Shown here piece after piece: positions 49,338 through 60,710 of a stretch of 60,710 nt of DNA; the first letter of the stretch is position 1; every line of letters starts with the position of its first letter. The DNA is taken from positions 20,455 through 81,164 of the forward strand of contig CAJTKV010000002.1 in assembly GCA_910577075.1 (NCBI GenBank), in the 5' to 3' direction. The translations under genes were made by a program, and so were the position numbers. The notes beneath the pieces are model-generated. The model did not search any database. It was given only the letters and a program-made list of their open reading frames with translations, and had not been told where the DNA came from. The DNA is from an uncultured Bacilli bacterium. GTDB lineage: Bacteria > Bacillota_I > Bacilli_A > RF39 > UBA660.

Positions 49338-49366
49338 TTGTTAATAAAAAAAATAAATGCTATAAT
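49338..49366 (+). promoter_or_regulatory. Sigma-A type promoter upstream of essC
   Basis: TTGTTA, a 17-nt spacer, then TATAAT. The sequence downstream of the -10 is shared with the promoter at 56859. Confidence 0.6.
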
Positions 49367-49380
49367 TAATACAATAAAGG

Positions 49381-52300
49381 GTGATTGAAGTGATATTGGC
49401 GGTTATTAGCGGTAATAAGATTAAAAAAAATATTCTTCCTGAACAAAAAAATGGTAACTATCAAATAATTGATGGAAATCATAATATACTAGGTAATGTT
49501 GTCGCTAATAATAATGTTTGGTTTTTTTATGCCAGCGACGAGTACGAATTTTTTATCAACGGAGCAACTTCTTATTCAATCAAATTAGAGGAATTTTCTC
49601 AAGTAGAAATAAAAAAAAGAATTACTCATGAAACAATGATTATGTACGTATACTCCCTTTCGTCATGCGTTCAAATGGAACTTCAAACAAGAACTTCTAA
49701 AATCACTATTGGTAAAAATCCGGTATGTGATATATGTTATAACTCTACTTATACAAAGGATAATCACGCTCGATTGACTTATGAAAATAGTAGATGGTAT
49801 TTAGAATGCGTAGAGGACTATGCCTATGTAAATGAGCGATTAGTCAAGAAAAAAAAAATAGAACATGGAGATATAATCTTCATTTTTGGTTTAAGAATTT
49901 TTTGTGTTTCAAATATTGTCATTATAGCTAATTTAGTTAAAACTAATCAGATTAAAATTAAGCAGGAGTCTTTTGACAATGCTAAAATACTTGCACAAGA
50001 ACTAAATGAAAATGTTATGTCGTTAGAATCAGAATATGAATTATTCAATTCTAATGAAGAATTCACTCGATCACCAAGATTTCGAACATCAAATGAAAAA
50101 GTTGATATCAAAGTGGCAGCACCGCCTCAAGAACAAAGTCAAACAACTCCTCCAACAATATTAACAATTGGCCCACAGTTAACGATGATGTTAACGTCCG
50201 TTGTTAATCTTATGAATGTACTAACTCAGGTTGCCTCTGGAACAACAACCTTGGATAAAGTTTTGCCAAGCTTAATCTTGTCAATAATAACCATGACTAG
50301 TGCTTTAATGTGGCCGGCTCTAACAAGAAGATGGAATAAGCGAAACAAAAAGAAAAACGAACTCATAAGAATCAAAACATATAGAAATTATTTAAAAAGA
50401 AAAGATAAAGAAATTACAGAAATAATTGCAAAACAAAAACAAGTTTTATTGGAAAATAATAACTCCTTAGAAGAATGTCAACAAATAATATATCAAAAAA
50501 AGAGAAATTTATGGGAACGAAAAATAATGGATAATGATTTTCTTCAAATAAGATTAGGTACAGGCTTTGTTAAACCAGATATAAACATTAAATACGAAGA
50601 AGCAGAATTTCAAATTAAAGACAATATGCTTGAAGATGAATTAAAAGATTTAATTAAAAAATACGATTATTTAGAAAAAGCTCCGTTAAATACATCATTA
50701 GTAGAAAACTCAATAACCGCAATTGTAGGTAATCAAGGGTTGCTTAAATCTTTTTTTGAATCCATTATATTACAAATAATAACATTTCATATTTTTAATG
50801 AACTAAAAATAGTTATTTTTACAGATGAAAACAATGTAGACTCTTGGAATTATTTGAAATTTGCACCTCATTGTTGGGATAATCAAAAAGAATTTCGTTT
50901 TATTGGAGCAACAATGGAGGAAAAAAAGAAAATATCCACATACCTTGAAAATATCATAAAATCAAGGAAAGAAATAGCATATGGAGAAAATGGTAATGCT
51001 TCATCAAGCACAACTGGAGATTTATATAAGATGTTTAATCAATATTTTCTAATAATAATAGATAGTTATGAAAATGCCAAAAACATTGAAGCAATAAATG
51101 AAATATTAAATCTAAATGACAACTTAGGTTTTTCGTTACTTATTAAGAATAGTAGGATAACTAATTTACCAAGTCAGTGTTCAACTTTTATAAATATTGC
51201 CGAAGAAAAGAGCGGATTATTTAAGAATAACTTGGTTGAGTCAAACCAAAAACAGTTTGATGCAGATTTTAATAAAACGGTAGACATAGCAGCATGTGTT
51301 CAAAAAATAGCAAATATATATGTTAATATTCCAAAAGAATCTCACGAATTGCCAAAAAGTATCGGTTTCTTAGAAATGTATGGAATTGGAAATGTTGAGC
51401 AATTTAATTCGTTAGATAGATGGAAAAATAATAATCCTGTTAATAGTTTAGGAGTTCCAATCGGTATAGATCAAAGTGGAGAATTATTTTACATGGACAT
51501 TCACGAAAAAGCATATGGACCTCATGGATTAGTAGCAGGAACGACAGGATCAGGTAAATCAGAATGGATAATTACATATATACTTTCTTTATGTGTGAAT
51601 TTTTCTCCTCTTGAAGTACAATTTGTTTTGATTGACTATAAGGGTGGTGGACTTGCCGGTTCTTTTGTCAATGAAGAAACAGGGATGCGTCTCCCTCATT
51701 TAGTTGGAACAATAACGAATCTAGACAAATCAGAAATTCGTAGAAGTCTTGCATCTCTTGAAGCTGAATCCAAAAGACGTCAAAGAAAATTTAATGAAGC
51801 AAGAGATAAACTAAATGATAGTTCAATGAATATATACAAATATCAACAATATTACCGAAAAGGAATGTTAGACGAACCTTTATCACACCTATTTATTATT
51901 TCGGATGAGTTTGCTGAATTAAAATCACAGGAACCAGAATTTCTTGATCAGCTAGTATCAATCGCACGTATTGGAAGATCATTAGGGATTCATTTGATTT
52001 TAGCCACACAAAAACCTGCAGGAGTAGTTAATGAACAGATGTGGTCAAACTCACGATTTAAAGTTTGTCTAAGAGTTCAAGATAAGGCAGATTCTAATGA
52101 TATGATTAAATGTCCTGATGCTGCTTATTTAAAACAAACTGGAGCTTTTTACTTACAAGTCGGTTTAAATGAAGTTTTCCAACTGGGACAATCGGCCTAT
52201 GCAGGTGGGTTGTATAAACCTACGACAATAGTAAAGAAAAAAATTGACACAGCAGTAGAAATTCTATCTCGAGACGGAAGTGTCGTAGATACTATTGAAG

Positions 52301-58442: not shown

Positions 58443-59621
58443 ATGGACTTAAAAGGAGAATTAATAGGAACTTGGGATGAAACAGAAGCAAGTATGCAAA
58501 AGCAAGCCAAGGGAGATTATCCAACGTTTGTATACGATAATTCAACAGCAGGCGGAATTTTGGAAAGTATGTCAACTTTTTTTCAAACGATAAAGAAGAT
58601 AGAAAATACGGGAAATACGGTCATAGCAAATATAAATAGATTGAAAGAATTATATACAGAATTTGGAGAAGTTTTACCAACTTTAGATAGTATATGTGGA
58701 AATTTAACTAATAATATTCAGGCAATAAAGAATTGTAATGAAAATATCATAAAAAATCTAGAATTAGCAGTAGCCGAAGCAATGAAAAAAGATGCTGCAT
58801 TTGCGGAAGACTTGGGAATATTAAATCAACTAATGAGTGAAGAAGGAATAAATCCAACAGTAGATATAAGTGCACAAAATGCAAGTTCAGATCCAGCACC
58901 TCAAGTTGAGCAACCGGTAGAAGGATCAAGTCAATCAACATACACAGTATCAAGCGGAGACACCTTAAGCAAAATAGCAGCAGCTCATGGAACGACAGTA
59001 GCCGCAATAGCAGCAGCAAATGGATTAAAAGATATAAACAAAATAGGAGTAGGACAGCAATTGATAATACCAAATGGAAGTGAAACTCCATCACAAACTT
59101 CAACAGCAGAATCACCAAGTGTAGAAGAACAAATAATGCAAAGTGAAGATGTGAATGCTTTCAAAATGGATAACTCAACATCAAATGGCAATATTGATAC
59201 TAGTAAATATAATAATAACGAAAATAGAGGATTTGTTGTTACAACAGGCAATCAAACTTACACAAATATGAGTTCCAAAGACAAAGAATTGTTAACAGCA
59301 ATTATATGTGCAGAATGTGACGGAAGTTATGATGATGCATTAGCTGTAGCTTCAGTTATATTAAACAGAACAGAAAGCCCTCAGTGGTCATGGTGCGGAA
59401 ATAGCCCTGTCAAACAAGCTACGGCTCCAAGTCAATTTGTTGTATATGAAAACAATAGATATCAAAAATACATGGGAAGCGGAGTTAATCCTGTTGTTCA
59501 AGAAGCTGTTAATGATGCTTTAAATGGGGTTAGAAATAATAATTATTATTCATTTAGATCAAATGGCAGTACAGGTTACAGTAGCAATATGATTACATCA
59601 TCTGGAAATAGATATAAATAG
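58443..59621 (+). CDS. Helical N-terminal domain + LysM + SleB/CwlJ-type (Hydrolase_2) cell-wall hydrolase; candidate T7SS effector
   Basis: The N-domain has 'FVYDNSTAGGILES' and 'MKKDAAFAEDLGILNQLM'. LysM is 'YTVSSGDTLSKIAAAHGTTVAAIAAANGLKDINKIGVGQQLIIP'. The C-terminal 'LLTAIICAECDGSYDDALAVASVILNRTES...APSQFVVY...AVNDALNG...YYSF' matches the SleB catalytic domain pattern. No signal peptide. Confidence 0.75.
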   Translation: MDLKGELIGTWDETEASMQKQAKGDYPTFVYDNSTAGGILESMSTFFQTIKKIENTGNTVIANINRLKELYTEFGEVLPTLDSICGNLTNNIQAIKNCNENIIKNLELAVAEAMKKDAAFAEDLGILNQLMSEEGINPTVDISAQNASSDPAPQVEQPVEGSSQSTYTVSSGDTLSKIAAAHGTTVAAIAAANGLKDINKIGVGQQLIIPNGSETPSQTSTAESPSVEEQIMQSEDVNAFKMDNSTSNGNIDTSKYNNNENRGFVVTTGNQTYTNMSSKDKELLTAIICAECDGSYDDALAVASVILNRTESPQWSWCGNSPVKQATAPSQFVVYENNRYQKYMGSGVNPVVQEAVNDALNGVRNNNYYSFRSNGSTGYSSNMITSSGNRYK

Positions 59622-59630
59622 GAGGATTTT

Positions 59631-60710
59631 ATGGATTTAGTAGGAAATTGGGATGATGCTGAAGCATCTTCAATTAAAGAAGCAAAAACATTTGATAATT
59701 TTTTATATGATAATAGTACTGATGGTGGAATAATTGACAAATTATCTGATTATTATAATCTCATTAAAAAAGTTGACGAATCCGCAAAACTGGCGATAGA
59801 TAATCTTAAAAGTATAAAAGATAATTATGACTCATTCAATGACATACTAGGACAATTGGGAACATTAAGTAATAATTTAAACAGCAATATTTCTTCTTTA
59901 AAAAGAGCCAATGAGCGTCTTGTACGAGGTATGGAGTCAACCGTTATGGATGCTATGGAAAAAGACTTGCAATATGCTGAAGATTTAGAGTTAATTACAG
60001 AATTAATGAATGATGAAGGATATGTATCCAATAGAACATTGGGAATAACTAATGATACTGTAACTTCTGCATCAACGAGTACTTCAACAACCTCTGTTTC
60101 TTCTGAACCTACAAGTTATACAGTTAAAGGTGGAGATACCTTATCTGCAATAGCCAAGGAAAATGGAACAACTGTTGAAGAACTAGTTAGTGCAAACAAT
60201 ATAACTGATCCAAACAAGATTTACGTTGGACAAGAAATAGTAGTTCCAAATAAAGAGCAGACATCTAGTATTGAGCAAACTGGAGAGAATTCTAACACTA
60301 TCTCTTATTCTTCAAATACATCTGCAAATGAAACATCATATTCATCGTCCAATATAGCTAGTCCAGAAACTGCAAATACTAATATAACAACTGGAGCATC
60401 AACATCTACTAATAAATCAGATACTTCTTCTACAAACTTTTCAGCAGAAGAAGTGGCTAAAGTGGGTACTGAAGTTGTACATACAGCAAGTTCAGCTATT
60501 ACTACTGGTAAAACTGTTACTGAAGCTAGTAGAATTGCGACAGAAGCCATAACTGGAACTCAAAGAAATGTTAGAATAACTAATGCCAAGTTGCCTCCAA
60601 GTTTTGATCAAATTTTACAAGATCAATATAATATTGGTACTGTATCAAATCTTCAAACAACCAATGTGTTTGCACAGCCAATAAATCCTACTACTTTCGA
60701 TACCCAACCA
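59631..60710 (+). CDS. Helical N-terminal domain + LysM + Ser/Thr-rich linker + unknown C-terminus (3-prime truncated by the window)
   Basis: This ORF is not in the supplied track. By hand translation the frame is open from the ATG at 59631 (RBS 'aggagg') to the last base. It reads '[36 protein letters not shown]...[18 protein letters not shown]', then LysM '[44 protein letters not shown]'. Confidence 0.7.

Follow-up and report, generated by a model that had tools for sequence, protein, structure and literature searches.

A 60,710-nucleotide (nt) stretch of DNA from an uncultured Bacilli bacterium, here called the window, carries a compact gene cluster that runs from 48.1 kb up to its right end and is built around essC, the gene for the membrane ATPase of a secretion system of type VII (T7SS). 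All positions below are those of the whole window, whose G+C content is low (~30%). We consider it likely that this is a complete, conserved cluster of a further, undescribed T7SS subtype with an EssC like that of T7SSb, the form known as Ess in Staphylococcus aureus and Yuk in Bacillus subtilis. As far as seen, the cluster is restricted to a clade of uncultured, low-GC gut Bacilli.

The essC open reading frame (ORF; 49381 to 54030, plus strand) encodes 1549 amino acids (aa); relatives and gene callers point to the GTG at 49390 as the probable true start, which gives 1546 aa. This GTG is preceded by a ribosome-binding site, AAAGGGTG, and by a promoter-like site just 5' of essC (49338 to 49366, plus strand; TTGTTA, 17 nt, TATAAT with the extended -10 TG), which agrees with the consensus at 10 of 12 positions and is a consensus match only. 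The first-pass annotation, made from the letters of this DNA, had called essC unambiguous, and model searches agree. EssC scores 932 bits against TIGR03928 (T7_EssCb_Firm, the NCBI equivalog model for Firmicute EssC; cut-off, 778), matches the Pfam models FHA (E = 3.9e-08) and FtsK_SpoIIIE (E = 3.6e-42), and has B. subtilis YukB as its closest solved structure in the PDB (E = 4e-114). That alignment begins at residue 220, and the FHA-containing N terminus cannot be aligned with YukB. Two weakly hydrophobic segments, read by eye, lie at approximately residues 258 to 314, and three FtsK-like domains were found, with the Walker A sequences GTTGSGKS at residue 720 and GLSGGGKE at residue 1068.

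Directly 3' of essC lies a gene for an 84-aa protein (54027 to 54281, plus strand), which begins within the essC stop codon (GAAGAATGAAATAT, a 4-nt ATGA overlap), as the first-pass annotation had read it, and is coupled to essC in translation. The yukD/esaB label that it had attached to this gene holds for fold and position and fails for sequence. No Pfam (including YukD, PF08817) or NCBIfam match was obtained at an E value of ≤0.1, YukD was also absent from the results of a profile search against PDB sequences (E value of ≤10), and just five sequence relatives exist among 5.8 billion protein clusters; a sequence tie to YukD was not found, and fold alone links the two. The AlphaFold model is confident, with a predicted local distance difference test (pLDDT) score of 89, and ubiquitin-like (beta-grasp) folds account for 50 of the 50 Foldseek matches listed, most of them ubiquitin or ubiquitin-like proteins, with query-normalised TM-scores of 0.58 to 0.74. 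Counterparts in three related loci (L007, L008, and L021) are 51 to 56% identical, and each is directly 3' of essC. By modelled fold and by position, not by sequence, the protein is YukD-like, and it is a putative counterpart of EsaB/YukD (TsxB in other T7SS subtypes) that has no C-terminal Gly-Gly.

The function of T7SSb is usually framed around EssA, EssB, EsaA, and EssC. EssB/YukC is a pseudokinase with one membrane segment and an extracellular domain, EsaA/YueB is polytopic and about 1000 aa long, and EssA is a small single-pass protein. The first-pass annotation had seen no ORF like any of these three between 47 and 60.7 kb, which was borne out by scans with Pfam and NCBIfam models of all ORFs of at least 75 aa in 46.4 to 60.7 kb and of ORFs of at least 90 aa in the rest of the window (57 window ORFs, or 62 with loose-threshold scans included, plus two ORFs from an extension of the contig). 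Among these ORFs, models for EssA, EssB/YukC, EsaA/YueB, YukD, and WXG100 gave no match. EssC aside, the cluster contains no ORF of about 1000 aa, and its sole polytopic protein is a 282-aa DUF5684 protein, which is also the only one with above-threshold hydrophobic segments. EssB/YukC is likewise missing from the precomputed Pfam lists of related loci. Overall, EssA, EssB, and EsaA were found neither within about 10 kb of essC in about 10 lineages nor in the window's 60.7 kb and a further 10 kb. Upstream in the window (1 to 49 kb), a search for T7SS core genes returned teichoic acid synthesis genes, YunB, YutH-like, TelA, and other Pfam matches and no core gene.

The suggestion that the missing genes might lie past the right edge did not hold. 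The exact sequence of a 392-aa cluster protein is shared by 16 public contigs, and a 115-kb contig (L001) continues the window rightward. Past 60710, it carries the remainder of a LysM ORF that the window edge cuts (409 aa in full) and a further LysM protein of 387 aa, and these are followed by housekeeping genes: a topoisomerase, pyruvate formate-lyase and its activase, and an arylsulfotransferase-like gene. Homologues of esaA, essA, and essB directly downstream of 60710, which had been named as the refuting case, were looked for on this extension and not found, so that a location just right of 60710 is ruled out by the contig extension.

Conservation of the gene set and of its neighborhood

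Related loci (labelled L007, L008, and so on) were found through homologues of a membrane protein of about 483 aa and of the small helical proteins, all encoded in the cluster, and through a scan of species-representative genomes. They come from uncultured gut Bacilli, two of them from the mouse gut catalogue MGBC. An all-against-all comparison places the same cluster in about nine further lineages, with the gene set seen in L007, L008/L009, L011, L012, L014, L016, and L021 and partly on the shorter contigs L015 and L017. The conserved set consists of a DUF5684/zinc-ribbon protein, EssC, the ubiquitin-like protein, two new families of helical proteins (A and B), a repeat protein, a membrane protein with an HExxH motif, a small tail protein, and cargo in which an A or B domain is joined to LysM and/or a hydrolase. 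EssC is 58 to 78% identical in six lineages, each compared with the closest of three references (the window, L007, and L008). The comparison of gene order with relatives that the first-pass annotation had recommended thus gives the same non-canonical set beside essC in about 10 lineages, the window included. The right-hand flanks vary by lineage (among them topoisomerase and prolyl-tRNA synthetase), and the genes for the HExxH and tail proteins move within the cluster yet stay in it, which together suggest a functional unit rather than an inherited neighborhood.

Two side observations concern these loci. L014 (CAZWST010000021.1) carries the Bacilli-type cluster in a record labelled Muribaculaceae, probably through a binning or labelling error. 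Also, an MvaI/BcnI restriction endonuclease gene (47228 to 48013, E = 1e-41) and a gene for a conserved 137-aa protein occupy 46460 to 48013, by the DUF5684 gene. L008, L020, and L021 have both of these genes as well, and L011, L012, and L017 have only that for the endonuclease; no methyltransferase was present among the neighboring ORFs scanned.

The first-pass annotation had framed the locus as a reduced or rearranged T7SSb, with unrecognised local proteins as possible substitutes for the missing parts. Garrett, Higginson, and Palmer (2024) defined T7SSc to T7SSj from RefSeq genomes (PMC11217815), and with that precedent, the idea of another T7SS subtype fits better. The main rival, which we regard as improbable, is an ordinary T7SSb whose essA, essB, and esaA genes lie elsewhere in the genome, so that the local proteins are substrates and accessory factors. 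EssC does pass the T7SSb EssC equivalog model, and T7SS substrates and helpers are commonly clade specific, according to PMC11217815. Nevertheless, about 10 lineages keep the same non-canonical set by essC with no EssA, EssB, or EsaA within about 10 kb, two membrane proteins are conserved within the cluster, and the FHA N terminus of EssC is unalignable with that of YukB. Moreover, the analysis of T7SSc genomes in PMC11217815 found no further orthologues of T7SSa or T7SSb components.

Membrane proteins, repeat protein, and tail protein

Both proteins that had been proposed as substitutes, the membrane protein of about 483 aa and the repeat protein, turned out to be conserved parts of the cluster wherever related contigs cover them. 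The former, which we call the HExxH protein, is encoded on the minus strand at 55326 to 56774 and has 482 aa counted from a Met that is conserved in the family alignment (the ORF extends to 56825 and has 499 aa). A conserved N-terminal domain of ~70 aa is followed by a basic stretch, one weakly hydrophobic segment (about residues 92 to 110 of the 499-aa ORF, or about 75 to 93 from the conserved Met), and a C-terminal domain of ~390 aa. The sequence FRHELGH is invariant in five sequences, as is a Glu 29 residues past the second His of the motif. Every related cluster encodes such a protein, of ~460 to 490 aa across the family, with 28 to 33% identity in L007 and L008, and homologues form five sequence clusters, all of them from this clade. 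The gene is on the strand opposite essC in the window and in L007 and on the same strand as essC in L008, L011, L012, L014, and L016. Zinc metallopeptidases (zincins) combine HExxH with a third zinc ligand in a recognisable peptidase fold; for the HExxH protein, searches of Pfam, NCBIfam, peptidase families, and PDB sequences gave no match. In its putative topology, the small domain lies inside and the large one outside, as in EssB and the kinase components TsxD. As a separate observation, a lipobox-like L(T)GC closes the internal hydrophobic segment of the HExxH protein in L008 (10001 to 11476) and L016 (9363 to 10751), at around residue 100, and this motif is absent from the window and L007 copies.

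The repeat protein (57588 to 58373, plus strand; 261 aa, or 243 aa when counted from the Met at 57642) combines an N-terminal helical domain with about eight copies of a ~17-aa motif, GKRxELxxDP..., and showed no Pfam match, signal peptide, or hydrophobic segment. Its counterparts in L007, L008, L011, L012, L014, and L016 carry lineage-specific versions of the motif in differing copy numbers.

On the left, essC does follow a divergent intergenic region, as first described, but the genes on its other side are not unrelated to the cluster, because both recur with it in relatives. The first of them (48114 to 48962, minus strand, divergent from essC) encodes the 282-aa DUF5684/zinc-ribbon membrane protein (Pfam DUF5684, E = 5.8e-11), in which an N-terminal DUF5684 domain with three hydrophobic segments is followed by an acidic linker, an invariant AIAFGGE, and a C-terminal CxxC...CPGC zinc ribbon. 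Its identity to counterparts is 37 to 41% across seven aligned relatives, and the gene adjoins essC divergently in each related lineage whose contig covers that side.

The DUF5684 domain itself is no general T7SS marker; that idea was rejected because 29 of 31 metagenome loci (of at least 8 kb) with DUF5684 relatives have no essC. In the two others, both from this clade, essC is adjacent, and the protein is the full-length zinc-ribbon form. The remaining loci match the membrane domain only, with the zinc ribbon absent in all four inspected, and in each of five essC-less loci examined, the gene lies between pheT and polA. The essC-less loci are not sites orthologous to that of the cluster. The domain family is thus general, and the zinc-ribbon form has so far been seen only beside essC. 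We regard the DUF5684/zinc-ribbon protein as a probable component of the system on these genomic grounds, and the link is graded as probable and unproven because generic DUF5684 proteins without a zinc ribbon occur without essC. Among the low-GC metagenome loci, L030, L034, L037, L038, and L045 have no essC, and the DUF5684 protein that they encode in the pheT-polA interval has a long tail rich in Asn and Gln in place of a zinc ribbon; an MvaI-like gene lies 4 to 5 kb from the DUF5684 gene in L030, L034, L038, and L045, and the L037 contig ends early.

The second gene (48998 to 49234, minus strand), 35 nt upstream of the DUF5684 gene and on the same strand, encodes the 78-aa tail protein, named for its C terminus, EQSGNITF. 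It has no hydrophobic segment, an acidic linker, and a single copy of the motif of the repeat protein. Homologues of 78 to 104 aa ending in EQ(S/T)GNITF occur in seven lineages, where their position and orientation within the cluster vary: in the window, the gene lies upstream of essC, and elsewhere it occupies the far end of the cluster. The tail and repeat versions of the motif are SRIITLDEDPIKFEPID and GKRIELNEEPISYKTAT in the window and HDIVIEEDFEINMDVAA and GDIELDENPEINMDVKR in L014. When the tail motif was compared with the repeat protein of its own lineage, the shuffles reaching the observed score numbered 6, 3, 76, 0, and 0 of 200. This result is suggestive, not strong, and the match tracks lineage only partly. 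The repeat and tail proteins have this short motif in common, and it is probable that one partner serves as the docking site for both.

These observations bear on a second rival, a minimal system that needs nothing beyond EssC, the ubiquitin-like protein, and families A and B, and in which the DUF5684, HExxH, repeat, and tail proteins are syntenic neighbors or secreted substrates. The related lineages do share flanking synteny (e.g., the MvaI-like gene), generic DUF5684 proteins occur without essC, and the repeat and tail proteins, which have no membrane segments, could be substrates; moreover, T7SSg is described as similarly simple in PMC11217815. However, the HExxH and tail genes switch place or strand yet remain in the cluster while the right flanks change, the zinc-ribbon form of DUF5684 is found only beside essC, and the tail gene of the window is closely placed on the DUF5684 strand, as given above. 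We rate the minimal system as an improbable account too, and an undescribed subtype with membrane partners of its own remains the reading that we prefer.

Helical families and putative LysM cargo

Family A comprises cluster proteins of ~125 to 150 aa. The copy nearest essC (54383 to 54832, plus strand; 149 aa) is a free-standing version of the N-terminal domain of the LysM proteins, with 31% identity to the N terminus of the 392-aa protein (E = 2e-19); it has no hydrophobic segment, and Pfam and PDB searches gave generic coiled-coil matches only. A more divergent 124-aa helical protein (56902 to 57276, plus strand) holds the family A position, ahead of the gene for the second B protein. Its identity to family A in an alignment is only 17%, with no significant BLAST match, and its assignment to the family is tentative. 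The family has two subgroups, which are probably homologous, as an hhalign probability of 73% suggests. A reading of family A as LXG found no support: there was no LXG (PF04740) match, and the matches obtained were generic coiled coils only.

Family B proteins are ~105 to 125 aa long. The window encodes one of 117 aa with a central (F/Y)HG motif (54870 to 55223, plus strand) and a second of 106 aa (57290 to 57610, plus strand), which is 40% identical to the first (E = 2.5e-24) and 32 to 36% identical to B proteins of L007 and L008. A search of 1.84 billion representative proteins gave 44 matches at an E value of ≤0.001, of which two (P0013 and P0047, long repeat proteins) are spurious. Among the 42 members, the most recurrent Pfam matches are WXG100 and LXG, with three members each and a best E value of 0.004, below threshold. 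An hhalign comparison puts FHG on WxG with a probability of <2%, using four WXG100 sequences as references, and profile searches of the PDB with family B returned coiled coils only. By its size, its position, and its central motif, family B is a candidate WXG100-like partner, that is, an analogue of TsxA.

The right end of the cluster encodes the probable substrates. The 392-aa protein (58443 to 59621, plus strand) consists of a family A domain, LysM (Pfam, E = 1.1e-15), and a SleB/CwlJ-type hydrolase (Hydrolase_2, E = 6.4e-07); its N-terminal 140 aa are homologous to family A, and it has neither a hydrophobic segment nor a signal peptide. The ORF cut by the window edge (59631 to 60710, plus strand; 409 aa in full at 11189 to 12418 of L001) has a family A domain, LysM (Pfam, E = 9.3e-18), and a Ser/Thr/Asn-rich tail, and the third paralogue, of 387 aa, lies beyond the right edge at 12513 to 13676 of L001. 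Over their first 240 aa, the 392- and 387-aa proteins share 97.5% identity, and past that point they are wholly different, a pattern that suggests that a gene was recently duplicated and its C-terminal domain swapped. The 392-aa protein ends in its SleB-type hydrolase, and by eye, the 387-aa C terminus resembles a 3D/double-psi beta-barrel domain.

Domains A and B are both used as modules. In relatives, a B domain is found N terminal to three kinds of cell wall hydrolase domain. The layout is reversed, with LysM N terminal and the A domain C terminal, in L011 (1108 to 1992), L014 (614 to 1627), and L016 (303 to 1193), where the genes adjoin the DUF5684 gene and the A domains are 54 to 69% identical to those of the family A proteins of the same lineages. 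None of the LysM proteins has a hydrophobic N terminus, and no candidate immunity genes were seen beside the LysM hydrolases. Because LysM binds peptidoglycan outside the cell and these proteins have no Sec signal peptide, a non-Sec route is needed, which makes them likely substrates. The system probably exports LysM cell wall hydrolases.

The cargo also speaks to a third rival, that the locus is a decaying, nonfunctional T7SSb remnant from which the core genes were lost. The canonical core genes are indeed absent. However, all genes are intact in every lineage, EssC is well conserved with its Walker A kept, and the substrates have recently been duplicated and had their C-terminal domains swapped, so we find decay very hard to credit and retain the undescribed, complete subtype.

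Elsewhere in the window, a large wall teichoic acid cluster (21097 to 33436) encodes three CDP-glycerol glycerophosphotransferases, several family-2 glycosyltransferases, an ABC-2 exporter pair, and a cytidylyltransferase; with the nearby YunB and YutH-like genes, it points to a spore-forming, thick-walled, Gram-positive host. A 252-aa ORF at 11683 to 12441 matches FtsK_SpoIIIE (E = 2e-16) and lies within 10777 to 15092, together with four more ORFs (276, 148, 575, and 136 aa) that have no Pfam match, and a GH25 lysozyme gene stands on the opposite strand at 15206 to 16459; the region at 10777 to 15092 may be a second, unrelated FtsK-type module or a mobile-element remnant. Co-directional genes at 2572 to 10110 encode a 393-aa protein, a 716-aa protein with a weak AAA_5 match, a 304-aa DUF7192 protein, a 467-aa TelA-family protein, and a 595-aa protein. 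Finally, a 564-aa Gln/Asn/Pro-rich protein without a Pfam or NCBIfam match is encoded at 41085 to 42779, between the YutD-like and YutH-like genes.

Proposed mechanism and comparison with known systems

We tentatively put forward a more specific model, which in its entirety we consider possible but doubtful. The cluster would be an eleventh kind of T7SS, in which EssC and its ubiquitin-like partner work with an entirely different membrane platform, made of the DUF5684/zinc-ribbon protein and the metalloprotease-like, membrane-anchored HExxH protein, and with a multivalent motif scaffold; it would serve Sec-independent export of the host's own LysM hydrolases for wall remodelling, not toxin delivery, and families A and B would be targeting modules without detectable similarity to WXG100 or LXG. 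In the mechanism that goes with the preferred reading of an undescribed subtype, EssC would form the ATP-driven export channel, with the ubiquitin-like protein aiding its assembly as in B. subtilis. The single-pass HExxH protein and the DUF5684/zinc-ribbon protein would stand in, as membrane partners, for the EssB, EssA, and EsaA of T7SSb. The helical proteins, free or fused to cargo, would act as WXG100/LXG-type targeting modules, and the cargo, LysM-bearing peptidoglycan hydrolases with no Sec signal peptide, would require this route to reach the wall. The repeat protein may be the multivalent scaffold, and the tail protein may be the carrier of a C-terminal signal, EQSGNITF.

Work in B. subtilis gives a context for the partner exchange. 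The N terminus of EssC binds YukC there, according to PMC11217815, and Oka et al. (2025) reported that YukD binds YukB and aids the association of YukB with YukC (PMC12637312). A cluster that keeps the ubiquitin-like protein, has no YukC, and has a divergent EssC N terminus fits a different membrane partner.

Several points weigh against both the subtype and the model. The essA, essB, and esaA genes could lie elsewhere in the genome. The AlphaFold model of the HExxH protein is poor (pLDDT, 55.7) and without a structural match, Foldseek having given only meaningless globin and phycobiliprotein matches (E > 0.1), and its membrane segment is weak, below the Kyte-Doolittle threshold of 1.6. No WXG100 protein has been demonstrated: the links of family B to WXG100 and LXG are subthreshold, with hhalign at <2%, and family A gives generic coiled-coil matches only. 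Also, the lineages are rather closely related and have kept part of their chromosomal synteny, in which the MvaI-like gene recurs too, and because of this shared synteny, some of the co-occurrence, especially that of the DUF5684 gene, could reflect an inherited neighborhood and not function.

If the proposal is right, an EssC and a ubiquitin-like protein that function with other partners would show which contacts are truly essential, and the cluster would offer a small set of alternative parts for structural work. It would also point to two helical domain families, A and B, that today's models for WXG100 and LXG do not pick up, which leaves the T7SS substrates of such genomes without annotation. 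Recent T7SS work stresses toxin delivery; LysM hydrolase cargo without a signal peptide or immunity genes suggests a wall-remodelling role for a T7SS.

Compared with T7SSb, the cluster shares an FHA-containing EssC that passes the T7SSb model and has YukB as its best solved relative, a small ubiquitin-fold protein beside essC, helical-domain proteins and fusions as likely substrates, and a Gram-positive Bacilli host with teichoic acid genes. It differs in that EssB/YukC, EsaA/YueB, EssA, and a recognisable EsxA are not found in the cluster or its flanks, in that the ubiquitin-like gene is 3' rather than 5' of essC and has no YukD model match, in an FHA region that is unalignable with that of YukB, and in its other conserved membrane proteins.

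The closest precedent is the series from T7SSc to T7SSj. As given in PMC11217815, each subtype has a TsxC ATPase, a WXG100 protein, TsxA (with no clear candidate in T7SSi), a ubiquitin-like TsxB (except in T7SSd), and subtype-specific parts, among which are kinases, PPM phosphatases, FHA proteins, Ig-like giants, EspG-like chaperones, a beta-propeller, and an AAA+ ATPase. The cluster resembles these subtypes in combining TsxC, TsxB, and small helical proteins with subtype-specific accessories, and T7SSf to T7SSj are likewise narrow in taxa (PMC11217815). Nevertheless, Pfam detected none of their accessories in the cluster or flanks: no kinase TsxD, PPM phosphatase TsxF, DUF6382-FHA protein TsxJ, Ig-like TsxI, EspG-like TsxG, vWA protein TscE, DUF5050 protein TsgL, or AAA+ protein TsfV. 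Conversely, the DUF5684/zinc-ribbon, HExxH, motif-repeat, and EQSGNITF tail proteins are not described in the sections of PMC11217815 that were consulted, and the term "DUF5684" is absent from its text. A full-text literature search returned no paper with "T7SSk", and none of the six T7SS papers listed contains "DUF5684". A RefSeq-based survey could not see these bacteria because they are known only from metagenome assemblies, and if our proposal is true, the 2024 picture of many T7SS subtypes extends to uncultured gut Bacilli.

For the putative cargo, the nearest likeness is to LXG and WXG100 effectors, including the reverse effector TslA, which share a modular helical domain at either the N or the C terminus and free-standing partners encoded adjacently (PMC10730906 and PMC13560087). 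Here, by contrast, there is no significant LXG or WXG100 match, the cargo is LysM plus hydrolase rather than polymorphic toxins, and there are no obvious immunity genes. A peptidoglycan hydrolase functionally tied to a T7SS also has a precedent in EssH, the dedicated cell wall hydrolase of S. aureus T7SSb (PMC13059805). Compared with EssH by its description there, the hydrolases in this cluster differ in that their helical domains are those of the system itself and a signal peptide is absent, and so they are substrate-like.

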